This document shows, piece after piece, positions 270 to 44,648 of a DNA stretch of 64,000 nt. The stretch covers positions 28,322-92,321 of the forward strand of contig CAYXUW010000001.1 of assembly GCA_964468375.1 (NCBI GenBank), in the 5' to 3' direction. This DNA comes from an uncultured Pirellulales bacterium (GTDB lineage Bacteria > Planctomycetota > Phycisphaerae > Sedimentisphaerales > Anaerobacaceae). Within the stretch, counting starts at the first letter, position 1. The number at the start of each line of letters is the position of its first letter. The notes beneath the pieces were generated by a model. The model was not told the DNA's origin. It did no database searches and saw only the letters and a program-made list of their open reading frames with translations. The position numbers and the translations under genes are program-made.

Positions 270-617
270 TTAGCTTTTCGGCATCCCCAGTGCCTCGGAT
301 ATATTTGCGCCGTCCATATTCGCATCTTCAAAATCAGCACCGTCAATATCTGCAGCATATAAATCCGCATCGGTCAGATTCGCATTTCTAAAATTCGTAC
401 CGGTAAGAAAAGCGGCATATAAATTTACACCTGAAAGATTCGTATCGGACAAATCAGCCCCGGAAAAATCCAGTCCGGATAAATCCTGGCCAGACATATC
501 AGCGCCGGATAGATTTACATGTTTAAGTATTGCCTTGCTTACCGCCTCTCTGAAATTTTTTGCTTCGGCAAAAAACAAGATTTCTCCTGTGGTTTTATGT
601 TTGATTTCGATTTTCAT
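270..617 (-). CDS. Pentapeptide-repeat protein
   Basis: 115 aa. After a 30-aa N-terminus the rest is tandem A(D/N)LXX-type pentapeptides (NLSGADMSGQDLSGLDFSGADLSDTNLSGVNLYAAFLTGTNFRNANLTDADLYAADIDGADFEDANMDGANI). Confidence 0.85.
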   Translation of the reverse strand: MKIEIKHKTTGEILFFAEAKNFREAVSKAILKHVNLSGADMSGQDLSGLDFSGADLSDTNLSGVNLYAAFLTGTNFRNANLTDADLYAADIDGADFEDANMDGANISEALGMPKS

Positions 618-16150: not shown

Positions 16151-16750
16151 TTACTTCATCTGCACGGGCTTTGATAAACAAACCTCTTTATCACAGAAGC
16201 GAAGTTTTTCATCAACTTCACTCCTAAAGGCGTACTCGTCCGGGCTGTATTTATTGGGCGGCAGCAGCGAAGGCAGGAATCCTAATCTTTTAAGAATTTC
16301 AGAAACCAGCTCGCTACAAAAAACACTCGACAAGTCGCTACGGTGGCCCATAAAAAACGACGCAACCGCCGAAGCAGCTCCCATAAGCTCTACAACGCTT
16401 TTTTCATAGGGCCGGTTTAGCAGTTCCGACATAGTGCTGTTTATAATTTCGTAAAACCGCTCGTCTCTTTCACAAACCAGACGCCGCAGAAAAGCCTTGC
16501 CCTTATACACCTGTAGGATCTCACTTAAGGGATTCAGCTGAACGCCGTTTTTGCCATGCAGCGTTGTCGATTCAAAAAGCATTACCCGGCCGCCGTCTAC
16601 AACGATGATGCCTATATGCGAGTAACGTGCCTTCCTGCGGCTGCATAATGTGCAGAAACAAAGTATCAGCGCGCTTATTGCGCCTTTGCCCCGGAAAAGA
16701 ACTATATCACCGGTTTTTAATGTGCTTCTGATATTTCTGTAGGGTATCAT
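16151..16750 (-). CDS. Permuted papain-like (YiiX/C92, NlpC/P60-superfamily) amidase-like protein
   Basis: 199 aa with GDIVLFRG ... YSHIGIIV ... FCSELV, matching the motif order of that family. Confidence 0.5.
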   Translation of the reverse strand: MIPYRNIRSTLKTGDIVLFRGKGAISALILCFCTLCSRRKARYSHIGIIVVDGGRVMLFESTTLHGKNGVQLNPLSEILQVYKGKAFLRRLVCERDERFYEIINSTMSELLNRPYEKSVVELMGAASAVASFFMGHRSDLSSVFCSELVSEILKRLGFLPSLLPPNKYSPDEYAFRSEVDEKLRFCDKEVCLSKPVQMK

Positions 16751-16751
16751 T

Positions 16752-17135
16752 TTACTGGCTCGCTATTACTCCGGTTAACGTGTTTTTTATGGCTTCAATC
16801 TCTCCTGCAGTGACAACGCCGCCGCTGGCTGCTTTGACATAAAGGTCCGCAAGGGCGGCTATTGCACTTTCTATTTGCAGTTTACCTTCGGATTTCTGTT
16901 GTTCGACTTTAACTGTTAATTGCGTCCCATCGGGAGTGTTCTTCATTGCCTCAAGTCCGCTCAAGGTCTGGTCGCCAATTCGATCATATTCTGTTTCTGA
17001 GCGCAAGCAGCTTTCGCCTTCGATGATCTCATACTCCTTATGGACTACTCTCGAGCAGCTACTAACTAGCCATACCGCAGCGGCCAGCAAAACCACTAGT
17101 GATATGACGGTTGATGAAAATCGTTTCGTGTTCAC
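16752..17135 (-). CDS. Lipoprotein
   Basis: 127 aa with a signal peptide and lipobox (AVWLVSSC). The GTG start follows AAGGAG. Confidence 0.65.
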   Translation of the reverse strand: MNTKRFSSTVISLVVLLAAAVWLVSSCSRVVHKEYEIIEGESCLRSETEYDRIGDQTLSGLEAMKNTPDGTQLTVKVEQQKSEGKLQIESAIAALADLYVKAASGGVVTAGEIEAIKNTLTGVIASQ

Positions 17136-34896: not shown

Positions 34897-36036
34897 TTAA
34901 GAGGTCAGTCCCCAATTAACCTGCAGTCTTATCGCGTTATTGTATTTTCCCGATCCGTATTCGATTTGTGTCGGTCCCTCGATGCAGTCGACGCTGTTCA
35001 TGGCGAAGTATCCCGGCTGCCTACTCAGCTGCCACATCTCGGCCAGCACCGCCTCAACACGGTTCAAAAACTCCAGCTCCGCGTTTTCGGGATTGTCTTT
35101 ATACTCCGCCGGTATATCGTCCTCGAACCGAAGCTCAAGGTCGCCGCCGACCGTATTTTCGCCGACGGCTATATTTTCATCCTTATCGTTTTCCGTCCGG
35201 CAGACAAGTCCGAACGGCCGGACGAACTGAGGATTTTCCTGCTCGTCCATCGGCGGCTCGTATGCCGTAACGTGCAGATTTCCCTTTGCCTCCTCGGAAT
35301 CTTCCGCGCCGGCCCATTCCTGAAAGCTCGAGGTTGCCGCCACGAGGTCCCGCAGGTTCAGCATTGCCTTGCCCCTGTTGCCGGTGGGTGTTATTTCACC
35401 CTCGCTTTCGGCTCCGTACCATATTATTTTGCTCCTGCCTGTCAGCCGGTCGGATATATCGATATCATCACCCTGCTTCTCGTAATGGAATGCGTGGTAT
35501 GTCCCCGCCGTTGTGCAGGCGGTTGGGAACTGTTTCGTATAATAGCCGCCTTCCTTGTCGTCCAGCACGATGGTGCAATCCTGCTTGCGGGCGTTGTTCC
35601 ACGTCCCCGGCTCTTCCAGGGCCTCTCCGGTATTGTTCCATACGTACGCGTTGGCTGCGAACCGAAGTATCGAGTAAATAGTTTTGTTTACCCCCCATCC
35701 CACGGCCAGCATACTCGCTTCCGCCGCCGTAACGGACCCGTTTATAAATTTCTCGGTGAACAGCAGCCGGTCGCCCATAGATATTTCATCGCCAATTCGT
35801 CCGAAGTAGAAGGCGTCCCACACTCCCTCATCGCATCCTGCCGGGAAATCCTCGGTATGATAATCGCCTTCCCTGCTGGTCAGTATCACGGCGCATTGTG
35901 TTTTGCGTGCGAGGTTCCACGTCCCTATCGCTTCCGATGCCCCGCCGCCGGTGTTGTATATATTTCCGTTAAGCCGCCGCCTCAGTATGACGTAATATGC
36001 GCTGTATAACGAATGGGCTATTGCCAGCTTTCTCAT
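34897..36036 (-). CDS. Structural-module protein with an internal domain duplication
   Basis: ATG 36036 follows GGAGGA. Two ~65-aa repeats are present (..GTWNLARKTQCAVILTSREGDYHTEDFPAGC.. and ..GTWNNARKQDCTIVLDDKEGGYYTKQFPTAC..). Confidence 0.6.
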   Translation of the reverse strand: MRKLAIAHSLYSAYYVILRRRLNGNIYNTGGGASEAIGTWNLARKTQCAVILTSREGDYHTEDFPAGCDEGVWDAFYFGRIGDEISMGDRLLFTEKFINGSVTAAEASMLAVGWGVNKTIYSILRFAANAYVWNNTGEALEEPGTWNNARKQDCTIVLDDKEGGYYTKQFPTACTTAGTYHAFHYEKQGDDIDISDRLTGRSKIIWYGAESEGEITPTGNRGKAMLNLRDLVAATSSFQEWAGAEDSEEAKGNLHVTAYEPPMDEQENPQFVRPFGLVCRTENDKDENIAVGENTVGGDLELRFEDDIPAEYKDNPENAELEFLNRVEAVLAEMWQLSRQPGYFAMNSVDCIEGPTQIEYGSGKYNNAIRLQVNWGLTS

Positions 36037-36041
36037 ACCGC

Positions 36042-36710
36042 TTAAAATCCTCCGCCGCCCGACTGCAGCCACAAGTCGGCCAACCGGCCGGCCACTGTGG
36101 CCTTGTCGTTCGGGTCATTTACCTGTTCCAGTATCGCTGAAACGTCTGCCTTATATAATTCGTTGGCATCGCTGTGCGCCAGCGTGCCGCTTACATTGAG
36201 CTTGTCGAGATATCCCGCCCTCGTCGGTGTCCAGTAGGTATTGTTCGGAGTGCTGGCCGCAAGCGCGGCATTATCCGTTCCCCGCATCGCAGCTCCATCA
36301 AGGCCGTTTACTTCGGCGTAAATTGTATAGTCAGTTATTTCCGAGCCGTCCCAGGAAATCGGCGTCGGCCCTGCTATCCAGGTATCTTTCAAAACATTAG
36401 GGTCATCACCAGCTTTTAGATAAGCTTTGACAATGTAATTCCCCGCTGGTATTGAGCTATTGAAATCACCAATATAATCTGAACAACTTCCCACATCATT
36501 AACTTCTGTGAGAGGCATGTCATAGTCACCTATATTTGCATCAGCAAAAACCTCAACAGCACCAATTGAGTCATTCCATGCCCGACTACTTGTATCTTTT
36601 ATTATTGCATAGACATTACAATCTGCATTGTAGGTTACAGATATCTCCTCCGCCCATAAAACTGACACTAAAAGAAACAACAACAAAAATACAACTGTCT
36701 TTTTTATCAT
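36042..36710 (-). CDS. Signal-peptide protein within the structural operon
   Basis: 222 aa from ATG 36710 (GGAGGAAAACCC RBS, ATGA overlap). The N-terminus is MIKKTVVFLLLFLLVSVLWAEE. Confidence 0.65.
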   Translation of the reverse strand: MIKKTVVFLLLFLLVSVLWAEEISVTYNADCNVYAIIKDTSSRAWNDSIGAVEVFADANIGDYDMPLTEVNDVGSCSDYIGDFNSSIPAGNYIVKAYLKAGDDPNVLKDTWIAGPTPISWDGSEITDYTIYAEVNGLDGAAMRGTDNAALAASTPNNTYWTPTRAGYLDKLNVSGTLAHSDANELYKADVSAILEQVNDPNDKATVAGRLADLWLQSGGGGF

Positions 36711-38560
36711 GGGTTTTCCTCCGTCCAAGTCCCTATCGGGTCGTACACTGTCCAATGATTAGGATCTCTGCATTTTAATGTAACTTCCCCATAAGCATCA
36801 GATGTGTTTTGTAAACTCTCACCCCCATCCATTATAGTTCCATCATTCAAACGAATATAGTCTCCTGTTGAACAAGGGTCAATTATAATATCTGCCCCAG
36901 CTGTATTATCAGCATCAATAAAAATATATCTATAACCAACTACGGCTGAAGGTAATTGATAAGTTAATGCAACGGCTCCAACTCCTTCATTACTATAAGA
37001 CGCTCCATTATCGAAGTAATACACTAAAGTATTAGAATCACAAATTATCGGAACAGGCGGACAACAACCCTCAATGATCGCCCTGCTTGTACCGCCTGAT
37101 AAATAAGTAGTAGCATGTGAATTGTCTATATTTCCAGATCCATCACCCACTTGACCAACAGTGAACAAATCAGTAATATCAGATTTACTATCAAGCAAAG
37201 TCTTTAAATCACTGGCTGTTTTTGTCAGGCCCGTTCCTTTTGCAACACTAATAGTATTGCCACTCAATACAGCCGTCCACACAGGAGGAACCATAGAATT
37301 AAGAACAAAAGAATAATTATTATAATCTTTGCCTTCTTTTTTAGATGTTATAGTTATATTTGAATTATCCCCTCCTGTGAAAGTTGTTTGAAGTGACGCT
37401 TGAGTACCAGAACCTACAACATTATTACTTGCTGCTCTTGAATACCCCCTTGCCCATTCACTTGTGTAACCAAATTGACAATTTCTAATAATAGCCCCTT
37501 CTGCTATACCTTCAGAACTATCACCACCCATTCCTAAACTAACAAAAACAGTAGAATAAAATCTATCCATCCCTCCAGAACCTTTACCAGAAATTATACA
37601 ATCCTGCAAAACACCAGACATTTTGGCATTTACACCATCATAAGAACTGCCTGCGCCAAAGCTTCCGAATCCAGCGACACAACTAATGGCCATGCCAGTA
37701 AATTGCCGTTGCAATGCAAACGAATTTGTTCCAGCCCAACAGAAAATAAAAGTTCCACTACAATTACAACCCCAAGTACCACATCCACCAAAACCACCAT
37801 CACCCGTTATGCAATAAGAAAAATAGCCAGAACAATCTGCTCCAGCAGTATCTCCACCAAAAGACTGCTTACCATATCCATAAGTAGAATCAAAAATACC
37901 AATGCTTTCATACCAAGATATACAATTAAAAAAATTCCCACTTATTTCTTTATTGGCAGCTAACCGCCAAGCCCATCCAGTTGCATGACAGTTCATCCAT
38001 GTCCCCCCGAGATTCTCATTACCAAAAACAGGTAACCCATATCTGACTGAAACTGCTGTTCCTTTAAGATGAAGATTCTGATATATACTTGAAGAATTGT
38101 CGGGTGTATTTACATCCAAACCAATATCCCCCCCAGTTTGACCATCAGACGTTCCTGTGGTTTCTATTGTCATATTGCTGAATCTAACATCATTGGCGGT
38201 CTGCTTTATCGTGCTGCCAGAAGAACCGGTAACCCAAAAACTTGATGGGTTGCCTGTTAGACTTACAAAATCAACAAAATTAGTGTCGGCGACTAAATTA
38301 ATCCCAACAAATTTCCCTATACCTATCAACTCTCTGCGGTTTGTTGAGGATAAAGCTCCCATCTGTCCATCGCGGGAGGATGATTTGAGCCAGTTGTATT
38401 TTGCCTGTAAATTATCACTCGGCTGGACAATAATTGCATTCTTAAAACCAATTAGTGACGCATCTACTTGTCGCGGCTCGATAGGAACTGCTCCGCATAT
38501 TGACCCCATCACCGCCAGAACCATCAAAATCAAAACCGCTGCTCGTTTCATAATTTTCAT
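36707..38560 (-). CDS. Signal-peptide, Gly/Cys/Asn-rich large protein (beta-helix-like)
   Basis: 617 aa with N-terminus MKIMKRAAVLILMVLAVMGSICGA. Repetitive segments such as GGCGTWGCNCSGTFIFCWAG suggest a parallel beta-helix. Confidence 0.65.
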   Translation of the reverse strand: MKIMKRAAVLILMVLAVMGSICGAVPIEPRQVDASLIGFKNAIIVQPSDNLQAKYNWLKSSSRDGQMGALSSTNRRELIGIGKFVGINLVADTNFVDFVSLTGNPSSFWVTGSSGSTIKQTANDVRFSNMTIETTGTSDGQTGGDIGLDVNTPDNSSSIYQNLHLKGTAVSVRYGLPVFGNENLGGTWMNCHATGWAWRLAANKEISGNFFNCISWYESIGIFDSTYGYGKQSFGGDTAGADCSGYFSYCITGDGGFGGCGTWGCNCSGTFIFCWAGTNSFALQRQFTGMAISCVAGFGSFGAGSSYDGVNAKMSGVLQDCIISGKGSGGMDRFYSTVFVSLGMGGDSSEGIAEGAIIRNCQFGYTSEWARGYSRAASNNVVGSGTQASLQTTFTGGDNSNITITSKKEGKDYNNYSFVLNSMVPPVWTAVLSGNTISVAKGTGLTKTASDLKTLLDSKSDITDLFTVGQVGDGSGNIDNSHATTYLSGGTSRAIIEGCCPPVPIICDSNTLVYYFDNGASYSNEGVGAVALTYQLPSAVVGYRYIFIDADNTAGADIIIDPCSTGDYIRLNDGTIMDGGESLQNTSDAYGEVTLKCRDPNHWTVYDPIGTWTEENP

Positions 38561-38859
38561 CCTTCGGCCTCGTCATCTTTGATATTGAAATGTTTGATTA
38601 ACAGGCACAGTTTTTTATCGATACGGTCATCGATTTTGTCACAGCGCTTATATACTTTATCACGATGTTCTGTACATTCGTTGCGATCCACCACTTTGCC
38701 CATAGTTTTAAGGTAATGCCCTATGAAGCAAATCATTACTCCTACTAACAAGGCCGATAGTATCGATATTATCACCGCTGACGAATTGTCCGATTCCGCC
38801 GCCAGCAATATATTTAGAAGCGATGCTATCCCCGTTAAGCTTGTGACCGCCTTAATCAT
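38557..38859 (-). CDS. Small two-TM membrane protein (holin-like topology)
   Basis: 100 aa. Two hydrophobic helices are followed by a charged C-terminal tail. It has an ATGA overlap with the next gene. Confidence 0.55.
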   Translation of the reverse strand: MIKAVTSLTGIASLLNILLAAESDNSSAVIISILSALLVGVMICFIGHYLKTMGKVVDRNECTEHRDKVYKRCDKIDDRIDKKLCLLIKHFNIKDDEAEG

Positions 38860-38880: not shown

Positions 38881-39282
38881 TTAAGCTCCCGATTTTCTTT
38901 TATGCATCTGGTGATGTTTGCTCTTCGGCTTGTTCCACCTGCATTGCAAATCGACATACCCGCTGATTATATCGTGGTCCTGCACGACCCAGTCCTCACC
39001 CTCTACCGTCACAATCCCCTCGTCGAAAGGCACTGTAGCTTCTGGAATCGGGATTGTTATTCGCCTGTCTTTCAATATAACCTCGCCCGTCTCCTCGTCC
39101 GCCACTTCGCTGTGAATCCTGCCCATGCTCGCCTCAGTCTCGAACGCATCTCCTGCTATCGGCGTGAATGTCGCCTGTTCGGTCTCCTTAAACTGGCGGA
39201 AGACGGCGTCGTTCGCCTTCTTCATGCTCGTTGCGAATTTGCTTGTCATAGTTTTCTCAAAAATGGGCGACGGCACAGCCAT
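38881..39282 (-). CDS. Hypothetical head-completion-position protein
   Basis: The start is ambiguous (TTG 39306, ATG 39282 or ATG 39249). Confidence 0.5.
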   Translation of the reverse strand: MAVPSPIFEKTMTSKFATSMKKANDAVFRQFKETEQATFTPIAGDAFETEASMGRIHSEVADEETGEVILKDRRITIPIPEATVPFDEGIVTVEGEDWVVQDHDIISGYVDLQCRWNKPKSKHHQMHKRKSGA

Positions 39283-39333: not shown

Positions 39334-40134
39334 TTAAGCCAGCCCTGCGTTGTTAATTCTGTAGGTCGTGATTATGGTCAGCGTCGTATCGCCGGTTGCA
39401 TTACCGGTATAATTATCGCCGGTATTGTCGAGCACGATGGCTTTATTCACCATTGTCGACGCAGCTGCCGAAATCGCTTTTATTTGCGGCTGCGCTATCG
39501 TGTCAGCGCTGCTCACAACAAAATCGCCGATCAGATCGGCGATCGATGTCCCGCCTGCTGCATCATAGACAACCTCAAGATCATCCGGCGCTGATGGCTC
39601 GGCCAGTACCTCGCTGCCGTAATCGAGTATGAACATCAATGCCAACGCTTGGTTTATCTTGTCTGCCCCGGGCGCCGGTACCAACTCTATCTGCGTTGTC
39701 GCAAGCAGCTTGATTTCAGCAGCGGTCATTTTGACCATTGCCGTCTTGACTTCGCCCTTCTGGTGGGCATTAAGCTCGACGATGGCCACTCCGTCTGTTG
39801 CTGTCAGTGCCTTGCGAAGCCGTCCGACCAGGAAATCGGCGTCTCTCAGCTCTGTCGTCAATGCCCCGAGCCCCGCCGTATCGCCGTACGGGTCGCCGTC
39901 CTCATCCCAGCCGATAAGGTCGCCGTCATTGCCGGTAACGGCCGCGGCCCTGCCCTTGACAAAGCCCTGAACCTGCAGCGAACCCTTTACGTTTGCCGCA
40001 ATAGCCGTCGCGCAGATTCCGGCCAGACCATTGTCCTGAACGAACTCGCCCGCGGTCCTCACCACAGAAGGCGTATAATCCTTGAAAACGCCTTCCTGGA
40101 AATTTATTGCCTCTGAAAAAAGTTTTTCAGCCAT
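39334..40134 (-). CDS. Head-decoration/cement-like protein (weak)
   Basis: 266 aa with an AAGGAGAAATAAA RBS. The N-terminal AGEFVQDNG...ATAIAANVKGSLQVQGFVKG resembles DUF2190-type decoration domains. Confidence 0.45.
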   Translation of the reverse strand: MAEKLFSEAINFQEGVFKDYTPSVVRTAGEFVQDNGLAGICATAIAANVKGSLQVQGFVKGRAAAVTGNDGDLIGWDEDGDPYGDTAGLGALTTELRDADFLVGRLRKALTATDGVAIVELNAHQKGEVKTAMVKMTAAEIKLLATTQIELVPAPGADKINQALALMFILDYGSEVLAEPSAPDDLEVVYDAAGGTSIADLIGDFVVSSADTIAQPQIKAISAAASTMVNKAIVLDNTGDNYTGNATGDTTLTIITTYRINNAGLA

Positions 40135-40763: not shown

Positions 40764-42905
40764 TTACGCCGTGTTCTTCTGCACTCCGCGGTGGTCAAGC
40801 GCTTTGCATCCGACGTCGATATAGCCCTGCCAGCCGATGCCGAGAACTCCGGGTTGCAGTGTTACTCTTTCGATTGTCGGCGTTCGCTTACCGTTAAGGA
40901 ATGCCACCTCGACGTTATCAGCATCGTTCGGCGATGCCATCAGGAACCAGGTTGTTGCTGAATAATTCGGATAAGCGGTGCTGCTCAGTCTCGATTCTAC
41001 TCCGACTTCCAGTGTGCCCTTATGTACGTTTTTGGACCCGCGTGTCGTATCGGTTGACCCTGCCCTTATGATGTAATCGCTCTCCAGCAGCTCCTTGCCT
41101 GTCTGCTCTAGTTCCGGCGGAATCAGCAAAACAGTCGGCTCAAGGTCTATCGGTTGGTTGTCCTTGTCTTTCTGCTTTCTCATCGCTGCTTTTGCCACGC
41201 CCAAATGTTCACTGGTCAAACTGTTTGTGCCATTCAGGTTGCCATGATCCGCATGGAACAAAGCAACACCGTCCTGCATTGCTCCGTTCGTCATCAAATG
41301 GGTGTAAATCAATTTGGCAATCAAAAGTCTCGATCTTCTTCCGGCGTGGAATGGTACCTTGGTAAGCGCGTTGAGATCGTCATTGATGATTGTCTGTCTT
41401 TCGATGATGATTAATTTGCCGTATGTTGCGATTTTATACTGCTCGTATTCTTCACCGAAAGTCCCGTGCTTCAGCTCGCCGGCGGCGCCGATCTGTTCCC
41501 AGTCGCCGATGTCGGTAACGCGGTTTCTTGTCATCGTTTTGAAGTCCGAAGCGTTTGCTATTGAGCACCACAGCTGCCAGGTATCAGCCGGTGACAGATA
41601 ACCTTTCATCAGACTTTTGTTGATGACCTCGCCGAGAGCTATGGGCAGACTTACTGTGCTGAAAGCGGCTCTGATTGTTTCTCTTCTGCTTGTTGGAATG
41701 GTTCCGCCGTCCAGCACGATGGCGTGTCTGCATATATCTATCAGCGAATTGTCCTGCAGGTGCTTGGCTTTTTCCGCCCGCTGGTCGCCGTTCTTTTTGT
41801 CGTTCTGGAATTCATCTTCATAACCGGCCCGCAGAAGCATCCCGTCCACCAGTATGCCTCTGGTCACATCCTTGTTATGAATATGAATTGCTGGCAACCC
41901 CGCCGATACATCCGCCCTGCTTTCCCGGACTGCCTTCAGAATTTCGGTTGAGGCCTCGGCAACCGACTTACCGTCCTTGATACACCGCTCGATTACCTCC
42001 GCTGGCACATCATCCCCCCCGAGATTTCTTATCGCGTCAACGCGCTCCCGCTCTTCCTTGAGCACCCGCTGGGCGACTTGCTCCGGCGTCTCGTCCTGCT
42101 GGCTGGCATTCAGCTGTGTCGGCTGCACGGCCGTTCTCTGCGCCGGCTCCGGGGGCTTTTTGTTATCCGGCTCTTTTGCGGGTGGATCGGCCTTGTCGCG
42201 TTTCTGCTCGGCCTGCCATTGCTCTTCCAGCTCCGCTCTTTTTTGCTCATCGAGGGTGTCCGGATTTTCCCCTCGCGCAATTAGCCACTTCGTGAATTCG
42301 TCCATTGTTTTTTCTCCTTTAAAAATTTTACTTTTACTTCTGTTTTTCGCGTCCTCATCGGCCCCGATAGGACAAATACTGCTTTCCCCGAGTATCCATT
42401 CGGTGGTTATCCTCAAGTCTCTCGCTGCCGAGGCCTGATACTCCTTGCCCCCGACATTTGCCTTTTCTCCTTTGGGGATAATTACCGAGTTGATCACCCT
42501 GTATCCCGCCGAATTGTCGGTAAGGTGTCCCTCTTTCGTAAGCGTCCAGGCATGCTCGGTGTCTTTGGAGCTGCTGAAGAAATTCCGCCCTATTAACTTG
42601 TCACCTTCGACCCGAAGATTACGTGTGCTTCCATGCTGTTTCTGCACCGTCGAACGATCATGGGTATCAAGCAAAGGAACCTGCCCATTTGCCGGTGCCC
42701 TGAACCCGCTCATAAGCAAAATCTCCTCGATTATCTCCCAGCGTCCCCAGTCCATCACGAGGACCCTGTTCTCTGTAGCAATTACCGCTTCTATTGAACG
42801 CGCCTTTTCATCGAGCGTTTCCATCCGGACCTGATAAGTCCGCGTAGTAAGCTCGTTTCTCTCAATTAATCCTTCAATCTGATTTCGTGTCATCGGCATT
42901 TTCAT
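40764..42905 (-). CDS. Prohead protease (HK97/S78-like) fused to a major-capsid-like domain
   Basis: The N-terminal ~190 aa carry His and Ser motifs (PLLDTHD, DNSAGYRV). Then comes an acidic/Pro-rich linker and ~400 aa of capsid-sized C-terminus. The start is ambiguous (five ATGs between 42893 and 42926); I chose 42905 after GGAG. Confidence 0.7.
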   Translation of the reverse strand: MKMPMTRNQIEGLIERNELTTRTYQVRMETLDEKARSIEAVIATENRVLVMDWGRWEIIEEILLMSGFRAPANGQVPLLDTHDRSTVQKQHGSTRNLRVEGDKLIGRNFFSSSKDTEHAWTLTKEGHLTDNSAGYRVINSVIIPKGEKANVGGKEYQASAARDLRITTEWILGESSICPIGADEDAKNRSKSKIFKGEKTMDEFTKWLIARGENPDTLDEQKRAELEEQWQAEQKRDKADPPAKEPDNKKPPEPAQRTAVQPTQLNASQQDETPEQVAQRVLKEERERVDAIRNLGGDDVPAEVIERCIKDGKSVAEASTEILKAVRESRADVSAGLPAIHIHNKDVTRGILVDGMLLRAGYEDEFQNDKKNGDQRAEKAKHLQDNSLIDICRHAIVLDGGTIPTSRRETIRAAFSTVSLPIALGEVINKSLMKGYLSPADTWQLWCSIANASDFKTMTRNRVTDIGDWEQIGAAGELKHGTFGEEYEQYKIATYGKLIIIERQTIINDDLNALTKVPFHAGRRSRLLIAKLIYTHLMTNGAMQDGVALFHADHGNLNGTNSLTSEHLGVAKAAMRKQKDKDNQPIDLEPTVLLIPPELEQTGKELLESDYIIRAGSTDTTRGSKNVHKGTLEVGVESRLSSTAYPNYSATTWFLMASPNDADNVEVAFLNGKRTPTIERVTLQPGVLGIGWQGYIDVGCKALDHRGVQKNTA

Positions 42906-44406
42906 TTTCTCCATCTTGCTTATCATTTTCCGCAGATGATGTTTTCACACCTGCTAATATTCTCCAGTCTATATCAATGCCTGTTTCCTTCTTTATTTCG
43001 TTTGCCTGCTCGATAGCAGTTTTAATTTCAACAGCCCGTTGCAACATTTCCGGCTGCCAATCCTTACCCTGCAATGAATATTCGGTCTTCAGATTCGTTG
43101 CCACATTCTTGAGCCTCAAATCTTGTCCCTTAGCCTCTTTCTGCGGGTCCACGTGGCCGCTGTCCGGCCAGTTCCAGGAAGGTATTGTCGCTGCGAGGTT
43201 TTTGCCTTTGTAGTATTTGAAGTATCCGGGTATGAGTAGTGCCTCTCGCAGCCATGCGAACAGCACCGGGTTATTTAATTTCAGCTCTATCCATCCACGG
43301 ACAGTTCTTTTAAATTTATTGAAGCTTTGATGGTCGAGCCGGCCTGATGCGTAATTGTATTCCGAAGAATTCGCCGCCGCTATGTTATAAGGCATACTGA
43401 TACAGCGGGCTATTTCGTTTATGATTTCCGCCTTGAACATTTTGTATGTTGTCGAAGGATGTTCCGGCTTCATCTGCTGCATTTCGCCGCCTGGTACTGT
43501 AAGCCATGAGTTCCGCGGAATTTCGACTTCGTCGCCCGCCTCGTATTCGACTGAACTATCGTCTGTCGCCTCTGTTTTAAGCACCCCCGCCACGTTCGCA
43601 GCCATCTCGGCCGCATCGCACGTGGCGAGCGTGTATCGCCTCAACAATGCGAAAAGCGGCAATGCCGGTGTTATCCACGGTATTCCTCTCGATTGTTCGA
43701 ATCTTTTTAATCGATACAGGTGCATCACCTGTGATGCCGGTACCTTGTCGTATTCGCCAAAATTCTTTGAAAAAAGAGATGATCCCGGATGCTGTTTGAG
43801 TATATAGTAAAATGCGGGTTTTCCGTCCCCATCATATTCTATTCCGTCCCTTATTTTATCGTCCAGCACCAGCCCTAGCGGGCTGTCGAGACGATCCGGC
43901 TCTATTGCTCGCAGTCTGAGCTGCGGTTCGCGCCTTACCCTTGTCCATTTCTTCTTGGATCTGGCGTTAACCATTACGATAAGCCCTTCTCCCGAATCGC
44001 ATTGTTGTCTGACTCCCGCTATCTGCTGAATCTCGCCGAACGACAGCTTGCCTTCGATATCACATATAAGAGACCACAGATAGAATTTCTCCTCGATTTC
44101 TTTGTTCGCATCCGGTCCTTCGCCACTCTGGAACTGCAGGTCGGCGCCCGTGCTGATAACTTCATTGACGAGAGTATCGATTATTCCTTCCGCATATGAA
44201 TTATTGCGCACCTCATATCTGCACCTGTTCCGAAGCACAGACAGTCCCTCCCTTATCGCCGAATCGGCGTTGCCGGCGTTCGCCCAAAGCCAGTGGTTCT
44301 CGTTATGCCGATCCGTGGCAGCAGCGTCAAAGCTTCTGGCCGCGGCGTGCGGCGGATGTCCCTTCCTCTGGACTCCAGTTTCTACAAATCCACCTAATAA
44401 GCTCAT
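42874..44406 (-). CDS. Portal protein (lambda gpB-type by size and order)
   Basis: 510 aa. It lies between the gpW-like gene and the protease-capsid gene, and pairs with a GpA-family terminase. Confidence 0.75.
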   Translation of the reverse strand: MSLLGGFVETGVQRKGHPPHAAARSFDAAATDRHNENHWLWANAGNADSAIREGLSVLRNRCRYEVRNNSYAEGIIDTLVNEVISTGADLQFQSGEGPDANKEIEEKFYLWSLICDIEGKLSFGEIQQIAGVRQQCDSGEGLIVMVNARSKKKWTRVRREPQLRLRAIEPDRLDSPLGLVLDDKIRDGIEYDGDGKPAFYYILKQHPGSSLFSKNFGEYDKVPASQVMHLYRLKRFEQSRGIPWITPALPLFALLRRYTLATCDAAEMAANVAGVLKTEATDDSSVEYEAGDEVEIPRNSWLTVPGGEMQQMKPEHPSTTYKMFKAEIINEIARCISMPYNIAAANSSEYNYASGRLDHQSFNKFKRTVRGWIELKLNNPVLFAWLREALLIPGYFKYYKGKNLAATIPSWNWPDSGHVDPQKEAKGQDLRLKNVATNLKTEYSLQGKDWQPEMLQRAVEIKTAIEQANEIKKETGIDIDWRILAGVKTSSAENDKQDGENENADDTKSD

Positions 44407-44648
44407 CTGCTTCTCCGCTTAAGAAATCTGTCGAGCCACAGATCTGTAATTAAAATCGCACCGACGGCTATAAGCGCCGCCGCGCTGTTGTATTGCCTCA
44501 CTCCCGCCCATATAAAAACAAGCGCTGTGACGGCCGTCAGGGAATCGATTTTCTTTGATATATATTTGATTATGGTTTTGAAACGTCTCCCCGCGGCCGC
44601 CGCTACGCTCGTAACTGAACTTTTTATTTTTGAAATTTGAATTTTCAC
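44403..44648 (-). CDS. Small membrane protein
   Basis: 81 aa. GTG start with a GTGA overlap. Hydrophobic segment TALVFIWAG...AALIAVGAILI. Confidence 0.45.
   Translation of the reverse strand: MKIQISKIKSSVTSVAAAAGRRFKTIIKYISKKIDSLTAVTALVFIWAGVRQYNSAAALIAVGAILITDLWLDRFLKRRSR

Follow-up and report, generated by a model that had tools for sequence, protein, structure and literature searches.

A holin-like gene is translationally coupled with those of a predicted beta-helix protein and its beta-sandwich partner, both with putative signal peptides, in a Pirellulales prophage late operon

The window analyzed here is a stretch of 64,000 nucleotides (nt) from an uncultured Pirellulales bacterium (contig CAYXUW010000001.1, positions 28,322 to 92,321). 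It carries a prophage whose late operon contains three consecutive genes encoding proteins of 100, 617, and 222 amino acids (aa), called P100, P617, and P222 below. P617 and P222 both start with a predicted signal peptide, P617 is modelled as a beta-helix protein related to phage fibres and spikes, and P100 is a small membrane protein resembling holins. The best-supported statement is that both P617 and P222 are predicted to be exported. We further propose, with a confidence somewhat short of even, that these three genes form a late-operon cassette directing a virion fibre/spike module to the host envelope for exit or receptor destruction. The features concerned are as follows; the predictions made with AlphaFold2 (AF2) and hidden Markov models (HMMs) are described below.

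38557-38859, minus strand: P100, 100-aa membrane protein; class II holin/pinholin-like topology, from hydropathy
36707-38560, minus strand: P617, whole open reading frame (ORF), 617 aa
38489-38560, minus strand: P617 signal peptide, aa 1-24, MKIMKRAAVLILMVLAVMGSICGA, predicted cut after Ala24, from a rule-based scan
36707-38488, minus strand: mature P617, from the AF2 model, Foldseek, the family alignment, and the HMM search
36042-36710, minus strand: P222, whole ORF, 222 aa
36651-36710, minus strand: P222 signal peptide, aa 1-20, MIKKTVVFLLLFLLVSVLWA, predicted cut after Ala20, from the rule-based scan and AF2
36336-36650, minus strand: P222 predicted beta-sandwich domain, aa 21-125, from the AF2 model, alignments, and hhalign
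36042-36335, minus strand: P222 C-terminal fibre-like part, aa 126-222, from shared motifs and base composition

All three ORFs were present on the minus strand at these coordinates. An ATGA stop/start overlap joins P100 to P617 at 38557-38560 and P617 to P222 at 36707-36710, which bears out the original prediction of three translationally coupled genes within the virion operon. A GGAGGA ribosome-binding site lies 6 nt before the ATG of P222, and only 5 nt separate the stop codon of P222 from the ATG of the next gene (36036); the gaps between the trio and the flanking late genes are 5 to 21 nt. By consensus scans, which are weak evidence in this respect, neither a promoter-like site before P100 nor a terminator behind P222 was detected. 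The AT-rich trio stretch has 18 promoter-like matches against 9.9 expected, and the promoter-like TTGACC-17-TATATT falls within the 3' end of P617. The seamless coupling within the late operon, with no promoter-like site found upstream and no terminator downstream, suggests that the trio is expressed late, together with the virion proteins.

Signal peptides were sought with a rule-based scan for a positively charged n-region, a hydrophobic h-region of 7 to 15 residues, and small residues at positions -3 and -1. Only 6 of the 54 phage ORFs were flagged, P617 and P222 among them. The n-, h-, and c-regions are MK.MKR, AAVLILMVLAVMG, and SICGA in P617, with VP after the predicted cut, and MIKK, TVVFLLLFLLVSVL, and WA in P222, with EE after the cut; small residues occupy -3 and -1 in both proteins (LWA before EE in P222). 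Homologues without a signal peptide begin at nearly the same places. Those of P617 align from residue 27 and start no more than 5 residues from the predicted cleavage site, and those of the P222 N-terminal domain (151 aa in locus L001 and 155 aa in locus L004) start with MANEI..., aligned to WAEEI, no more than 2 residues from it. AF2 modelled the signal region of P617 as a detached N-terminal helix with a predicted local distance difference test score (pLDDT) below 50, and the N terminus of P222 likewise as a detached helix. The n-h-c architecture, the scan, and the starting points of the signal-less homologues thus all point to the signal peptides that had been proposed for the 617- and 222-aa proteins.

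Both signals recur in the nearest relative of the phage. A search with the capsid protein led to four loci, L019, L015, L018, and one distant Rhodobacteraceae locus. The closest is L019, on a contig of a Pirellulales metagenome-assembled genome (MAG), with a major capsid protein 58% identical to that of the window; in L015 and L018 the figure is 42 to 46%. L019 is collinear with the window, the identities being 68% for terL, 66% for the portal protein, 70% for the cement protein, 44% for the counterpart of the 141-aa protein upstream of the trio, and 67% for that of the 391-aa protein downstream. Its own trio lies in the same slot, between the latter two counterparts: an 88-aa protein is 46% identical to P100, a 588-aa protein starting with MKITGLLLILLFAFICQA is 32% identical to P617, and the P222 counterpart, which starts with MKK..LTVMLLMFLIFLTLPLWA, is 33% identical to the N-terminal domain of P222 and ends with DLW..SGGG.F. 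The last two proteins have signal peptides in which the physico-chemical pattern is kept and the sequence is different. Judged from these alignments, the trio is a conserved feature of the slot that diverges far faster than its surroundings and keeps both signal peptides. A unique recent insertion was rejected because the same slot is occupied in L019. Export is therefore predicted from signals that are classical, that are placed where signal-less homologues begin, and that are kept in a relative with another mature allele. In L015 and L018, the cement gene is followed by genes for a small membrane protein and a signal-bearing protein of 155 to 159 aa; the 159-aa protein was tried as a P222 homologue and rejected (hhalign probability, 0.9%).

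To what extent the signal peptide is a fixed property of P617-like proteins can be seen from the family. A word-indexed search recovered only about 7 to 9 relatives, and the family was revealed by an exhaustive HMM search, which gave 4148 relatives at an E value of ≤1e-3 and 140 at ≤1e-30. Signal-peptide-like N termini were present in 23 of the 59 top matches that reached the N terminus. They typically comprise 15 to 22 residues right before the conserved start, and many are of textbook type, e.g., MKKLLTVFLLIVMAGIWVVPVEA. Top members without a signal begin with MLI.T... at profile position 1, and distant members have N termini typical of tail fibres. On a tree of 46 near-full-length members, made with the N-terminal region removed, the signal state required 14 changes, of which well-supported branches forced at least 6, and was no more clustered than shuffled labels. 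The export signal of the family, borne by about a third of the top members, thus appears to have been switched on and off many times. The P617 of the window falls in a four-member clade (Shimodaira-Hasegawa-like approximate likelihood ratio test, 100) with three signal-less proteins, and the L019 copy lies outside this clade. Since P617 groups with signal-less proteins and not with the L019 copy, export seems to have been maintained in the slot while alleles were exchanged. A resident signal peptide or N terminus joined to a swapped body was not supported, the per-region identities showing no clear mosaic. Export for the sake of disulfide formation was not supported either, because the Cys content is alike in signal-bearing and signal-less members (2.95% versus 2.84%).

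Base composition bears on the same exchange. A low-GC island extends over 36336-38859 (minus strand), with a GC content of 37 to 42% versus 50 to 57% in the flanks; the drop occurs at synonymous sites and is bounded at about 36300 and 38860. The GC content at third codon positions (GC3) is 0.26 for P617 (locally down to 0.08), 0.33 for aa 1-125 of P222, and 0.47 for P100, as against 0.62 to 0.66 for the flanking genes; for the surroundings of the whole island, values of 0.6 to 0.8 were obtained. For aa 126-222 of P222 it is 0.62, like that of the flanking phage genes, and the 3' joint of the island, a recombination joint, lies inside P222 around its MRGTDNAALA motif. GC3 is likewise low in the trio of L019 (0.32 to 0.44); taken over both phages, the contrast is 0.26 to 0.34 versus 0.55 to 0.66. 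It is also lowered in the tail-fibre genes of the window phage (0.38 to 0.39). The fast divergence, the very low GC3, and the recombination joint fit modules that determine specificity for the host surface.

A pectate-lyase-like beta-helix had been suspected in the 617-aa protein, and AF2 and Foldseek both returned such a fold. Mature P617 starts with a cap that is conserved (KYNWLKSS.RD..MGALS.TNRR), after which a right-handed parallel beta-helix carrying C..G..SFGG repeats is predicted (aa ~40-365); the model is poor in the middle region, and the C-terminal domain ends with GTWTEE. The pLDDT is mostly 70 to 94 for aa 40-330, which are modelled as beta-helix, and poor for the remainder. Foldseek matched the model to CE8 pectin methylesterases, fucoidan lyase, polysaccharide lyases, and phage tailspikes in the PDB (best E value, 3e-3) and to "pectate lyase superfamily," tail-fibre, and tailspike proteins in BFVD (best E value, 4e-8); the TM-scores were low because half of the model is poor. 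By sequence, P617 belongs to no beta-helix or pectate-lyase family of Pfam, PHROG, or NCBIfam and has no match in PADLOC, in the PDB (searched with the family profile), or among 50,697 cultured phage records (tblastn). No peptidoglycan hydrolase (muralytic) domain was found in it with Pfam, PHROG, NCBIfam, or the PDB sequence search. No host copy was found outside the prophage, and none in 400 sampled genomes of the phylum save its own. Two residues, D145 and D154, are invariant in the family alignment.

P222 was modelled as a beta-sandwich at aa 22-120 followed by low-confidence helices. The 391-aa protein encoded downstream, which has no signal peptide, contains two copies of a domain homologous to this beta-sandwich (hhalign probability, 96.8%; E value, 2.8e-10). 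The C-terminal half of this neighbour matches no known family. An hhalign comparison of the 391-aa protein with gp6-like connectors, which stand beside P222 homologues in L016 and L028, revealed no similarity. The C-terminal part of P222 carries the motifs MRGTDNAALA and RAGYLDKLNVSGTLAHSD and shares its conserved end, DLW..SGGG.F, with L019. P222 belongs to no family of Pfam, PHROG, PADLOC, or NCBIfam, and its C terminus has no match in the cultured phage records searched by tblastn. No Rz1-like or lipobox ORF was found in or next to P222, and its predicted periplasmic part is mainly beta-sandwich, in which it does not resemble a spanin. As a side observation, the motifs MRGTD.AALA and RAGYLDKLNVSGTLAHSD..YKADVS define a widespread set of ~50 uncharacterized phage proteins (P0011-P0063) of 200 to 390 aa, with an N-terminal beta-rich domain and at least one motif copy. 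In both loci viewed, such proteins are encoded near head genes (L017, 10001-10912; L036, 9802-10593), in L017 three genes after a Phage_capsid_4 capsid gene; this motif family corresponds to no PHROG family and has no match in cultured phages.

For P100, hydropathy and charge distribution agree with the two-transmembrane, holin-like topology of the original prediction. The first transmembrane domain (TMD1, aa 5-21) is weakly hydrophobic and resembles a signal-anchor-release (SAR) domain, with 56% Ala/Gly/Ser/Thr/Asn. A short acidic loop separates it from a strongly hydrophobic TMD2 (aa 28-47), and the C-terminal tail is charged, rich in Lys and Arg, and contains Cys. Because of this charge distribution, the positive-inside rule places both termini in the cytoplasm. 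P100 is thus predicted to share with class II holins and pinholins a small size, two TMDs, an N-in/C-in topology, and a charged cytoplasmic C terminus. Class II holins have an endolysin gene adjacent to them; here the adjoining gene is that of P617, without a muralytic domain. Pfam, PHROG, PADLOC, and NCBIfam gave no family for P100, the sole match being phrog_33013 (unknown function; E value, 0.0036) in the C-terminal tail. No homologue was found in the 50,697 cultured phage records by tblastn, and 300 genomes of the order gave only chance-level matches.

A P222-type beta-sandwich partners the beta-helix protein in 9 loci. Both partners bear signals in the window and L019, and neither does in L001, L004, L028/L029, L043, L047, and L036, i.e., in six independent loci, or seven counting L029, a near-duplicate of L028. 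That signals occur on both partners or on neither speaks for a joint action of the pair within a single compartment. From these comparisons, the beta-helix protein with its predicted beta-sandwich partner is a recurrent two-gene phage module, normally signal-less, among head, neck, and tail genes. L001 to L003 represent a small prophage with an SU10 capsid and a signal-less member, the gene order being, by protein length in aa, 262, 591, 151, 229, and 610. L004 and L042 are Mu-like elements, whose members are also signal-less; the order in L004 is 580, 73, 155, 229, and 219, the last two proteins resembling tail proteins of the window phage. The signal-less members of L001, L004, and L042 adjoin tail-fibre-like genes. 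In L028/L029, an HK97-type capsid gene is followed by genes for a 160-aa protein, a 559-aa beta-helix protein, and a 796-/698-aa protein starting with a P222-type domain; a gp6-like connector (Phage_connect_1) and a head-completion protein (Phage_HCP) come next in L028, and the L029 contig ends before this point. In L043, L047, and L036, a P222-type or MRGTD-type protein comes after the beta-helix protein.

A small membrane protein is encoded upstream of the signal-bearing member in all five contexts viewed, the window, L019, L005, L048, and L049. It is P100 in the window, the 88-aa protein in L019, a 279-aa four-span protein in L005, and an 80-aa protein in L048, in each case directly upstream; in L049, a 90-aa protein is encoded two genes upstream. 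The viral contig of L048 (7751-12282) encodes, after the 80-aa membrane protein, a signal-bearing member fused to a CE4 polysaccharide deacetylase (Pfam, 2e-11) and a 119-aa N-terminally anchored protein, and 2.2 kb downstream a 156-aa SLT transglycosylase-domain protein with an N-terminal signal. This region looks like a lysis neighbourhood with a putative exported polysaccharide esterase. In L049, a signal-bearing 274-aa ConA-like lectin protein is encoded directly upstream of the family member. A separate observation concerns L005 (8944-11833), where the signal-bearing member, of 610 aa, has an extra N-terminal "TAFTYQG.LYD" domain and stands behind the four-span membrane protein; both are encoded at one end of a contig of 109 kb, adjoining a sulfatase gene block, and may represent either a prophage edge or a cellular locus.

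In our proposal, the host of the phage lineage is of Gram-negative type and probably a planctomycete. Genes for signal peptidase I and an Omp85/BamA protein are present in the MAG, which indicates a diderm host with ordinary Sec-type signal processing. P617, as a beta-helix protein binding or cleaving polysaccharide, and P222, as its beta-sandwich/fibre partner, would most likely be made late with the virion proteins, carried over the inner membrane by Sec, and cleaved by signal peptidase I. Once there, a strain-variable polysaccharide of the envelope would be their target, and they could loosen or cut an outer layer from within, with P100 as a membrane partner or timer. Progeny would thereby be helped to escape, or receptors would be destroyed or masked, sparing progeny from loss on debris. 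A surface polysaccharide is suggested as the target by the fold, the fast divergence, the low-GC3 signature of exchange, and the carbohydrate-active domains in L048 and L049; actual export, the polysaccharide target, the time of expression, and the role in exit are inferred from such features. The original prediction, which offered an exported enzyme or adhesin, a lysis set, or envelope-associated assembly, is supported in part, namely as to the export features of both larger proteins, the beta-helix, and the holin-like topology of P100; no peptidoglycan hydrolase domain, spanin, or own promoter was found.

Several points weigh against the proposal. Sec reaches only the periplasm, from which a polysaccharide at the surface would be accessible only through an additional step or lysis. 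No active site could be assigned in P617, nor could catalytic residues or a substrate be named, and the AF2 models of P617 and P222 are mediocre overall (pLDDT, 58.7 and 53.4). P100 could not be linked by homology to any family of holins. Only two independent loci carry the full signal-bearing pair, and the presence of signal-less homologues in structural gene blocks leaves room for a structural role of P617 and P222. In L031 to L036, a small membrane protein is also encoded two genes upstream of some signal-less members, so that the association with signal-bearing members is not exclusive.

The structural role just mentioned is the first alternative, that P617 and P222 are still virion parts, such as head/neck fibres or spikes, whose N termini are unused for export or which pass through the periplasm and join particles only at the breach of the membranes. 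We consider it unlikely. In its favour, signal-less homologues lie between capsid and connector/head-completion genes (L028/L029) or beside tail-fibre-like genes (L001, L004, and L042), and distant members have tail-fibre N termini. The beta-sandwich of P222 is shared with the adjacent signal-less 391-aa protein and its C-terminal end with L019, and the trio is translated in line with virion genes. P617 also resembles the beta-helix tailspike and fibre depolymerases (Det7, HK620, P22, the Acinetobacter and Klebsiella capsule spikes, and the phi29 gp12 appendage) in its predicted fold, its site in the virion operon, its fast divergence, and its modular exchange; it differs from them in having a Sec signal, a coupled holin-like gene, and no sequence similarity to solved spikes. 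Against this alternative, both N termini are textbook Sec signals, as in at least 14 further family members. The virions of tailed phages assemble in the cytoplasm, and to our knowledge there is no precedent for the attachment of virion parts after lysis. The equal Cys content gives no sign of a need for periplasmic disulfides, and large distal tail proteins, of 643 and 685 aa, are already encoded separately by the phage. An improbable combination of both views is that part of the virion fibre/spike set is routed through Sec, matures in the periplasm, and joins the particles assembled in the cytoplasm only when the holin-like protein breaches the inner membrane. If true, the assembly pathway of a tailed phage would here extend over two compartments.

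It is also doubtful that the trio is moron cargo for lysogenic conversion or superinfection exclusion, in which an exported receptor-binding-like protein, expressed from the prophage, would mask or remove the receptor of the lysogen. The strong compositional island is the atypical base composition expected of morons, the products are predicted to be exported, and the promoter-like TTGACC-17-TATATT could serve such a role. Phage lambda provides a precedent, since its lom gene, for a protein with a signal peptide, lies inside the late operon; the lambdoid late-operon morons (lom, bor, and HK97 gp15) are, like the trio, genes for envelope proteins with an atypical composition inside the structural operon. 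Unlike them, the trio has no promoter or terminator of its own that we could find before P100 and after P222, and it is coupled to its neighbours by start/stop overlaps and gaps of a few nucleotides. Typical morons are sporadic and missing from the slot in close relatives, whereas the slot is filled by a trio in L019. No PADLOC match was obtained.

The last alternative, a strict lysis cassette with P100 as the holin, P617 as a new wall-degrading enzyme replacing the endolysin, and P222 as a spanin-like protein, is very unlikely, because no peptidoglycan hydrolase domain was found in P617, its relatives are fibre/spike proteins, its own very fast divergence is unfit for a conserved target like peptidoglycan, no lipoprotein ORF was found within or beside that of P222, whose sequence is not Rz-like, and another candidate for wall cleavage exists elsewhere in the phage. 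This candidate is a borderline Peptidase_C92 protein of 199 aa (YiiX/YaeF permuted papain-like amidase; 16151-16750; 27.1 bits versus a cut-off of 27), the only match resembling a cell-wall enzyme in the phage. Its gene directly follows that of a 127-aa lipoprotein-like protein (...LVSSC...) in the replication/early region (16151-17135, minus strand), and the two are possibly a lysis or wall-remodelling pair. Several observations favour a lysis cassette nevertheless. P100 is holin-like, and the order is that of a small membrane protein, an exported enzyme, and an exported or anchored protein. Family searches with Pfam and PHROG detected no canonical endolysin in the 46-kb phage genome, and the exit machinery of the phage is therefore unrecognized, so that a direct part of the trio in lysis is conceivable. 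The L048 member lies near an SLT-domain protein. The slot is comparable to that of the P2 lysis module, located between capsid- and tail-completion genes in the order L, X, Y (holin), K, lysA, lysB, lysC, R, S (PMC3091744), and Sec-exported endolysins exist, e.g., Lys44 of Oenococcus phage fOg44 (PMC6116005). The trio is like the P2 module in combining a small membrane protein with exported or membrane proteins between the head and tail parts of a late operon, and unlike it in lacking a muralytic domain, an Rz/Rz1 pair, and homology to Y or K, its large protein being a fibre/spike relative. With Lys44 and the SAR endolysin/pinholin pairs of phages 21, P1, and HP1, it shares a late protein with a Sec signal and a small membrane partner, and P100 is like pinholins in having a SAR-like TMD1 followed by a hydrophobic TMD2. 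In contrast to these systems, the exported protein is no peptidoglycan hydrolase, there are two exported proteins and not one, and the signals of P617 and P222 are strongly hydrophobic and classical, unlike the Gly/Ala-rich SAR domains.

The surroundings of the trio are those of an integrated phage. The window spans 1.39 turns of a phage unit of 46,090 bp, which is present as an exact tandem dimer on the contig (C1, 101,444 bp, of which the window is 28322-92321), bordered by other DNA of ~2 kb on one side and 7 kb on the other. A complete tRNA-Pro(GGG) gene spans the left junction (C1, 2032-2106), and a 47-bp core is found at the left end, in the middle, and at the right end of the dimer (window 19829-19875 and equivalents), which together indicate a prophage integrated in the tRNA-Pro gene of the MAG. 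The tandem dimer could be a true double lysogen or result from the threading of circular or concatemeric reads during assembly. The late genes are all on the minus strand. Their order is terL, accessory genes, a gpW-like gene, a gene for an 81-aa two-span protein, and a lambda-type portal gene, then the genes of a protease-capsid fusion, a Zn-ribbon protein, a cement-like protein, the 141-aa protein, P100, P617, and P222, and finally those of the 391-aa protein, a 306-aa protein, and ~12 more without family matches. The assigned genes and the immediate neighbours of the trio are listed below.

42874-44406, minus strand: lambda-type portal, from family search
40764-42926, minus strand: protease-capsid fusion, from family search
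39334-40134, minus strand: cement-like protein, from family search
38881-39249, minus strand: upstream neighbour, function unassigned; listed ORF of 141 aa, probable start at Met20, giving 122 aa
34897-36036, minus strand: downstream neighbour, 379 aa from the ATG at 36036 (listed as 391 aa); two tandem P222-type beta-sandwiches and a C-terminal domain

The 141-, 391-, and 306-aa proteins match no family of Pfam, PHROG, or NCBIfam, and searches with the neighbours gave chance-level matches only; the labels "head-completion" and "tail tube" that the flanking genes had received were thus not confirmed. Two other genes of the phage may be mentioned. The 81-aa protein with two hydrophobic segments (44403-44648, minus strand), encoded between the gpW-like and portal genes, is another holin-like small membrane protein in the head block. 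A 115-aa pentapeptide-repeat protein (Pfam, 2.5e-27; 270-617, minus strand) is encoded in the accessory region near terL. Pentapeptide-repeat proteins include DNA mimics, and it is conceivable that this one acts against DNA-targeting functions of the host.

Taken singly, the parts of the trio (beta-helix spike, signal peptide, and holin-like protein) are of known kinds. We did not find described their combination, a two-protein fibre module of virion type in which both partners bear signals and to which a holin-like gene is coupled, within a family that has switched its export signal on and off many times. Beta-helix spikes are virion tools for entry from the outside. The trio points to an overlooked use of fibre/spike modules from inside the envelope, with exit, receptor destruction, or exclusion as possible outcomes. 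It would also point to a hazard for annotation, since signal-bearing "tail fibre-like" proteins of prophages need not be structural, and it may be a starting point for learning how phages with planctomycete-like hosts cope with the unusual envelope of these cells.

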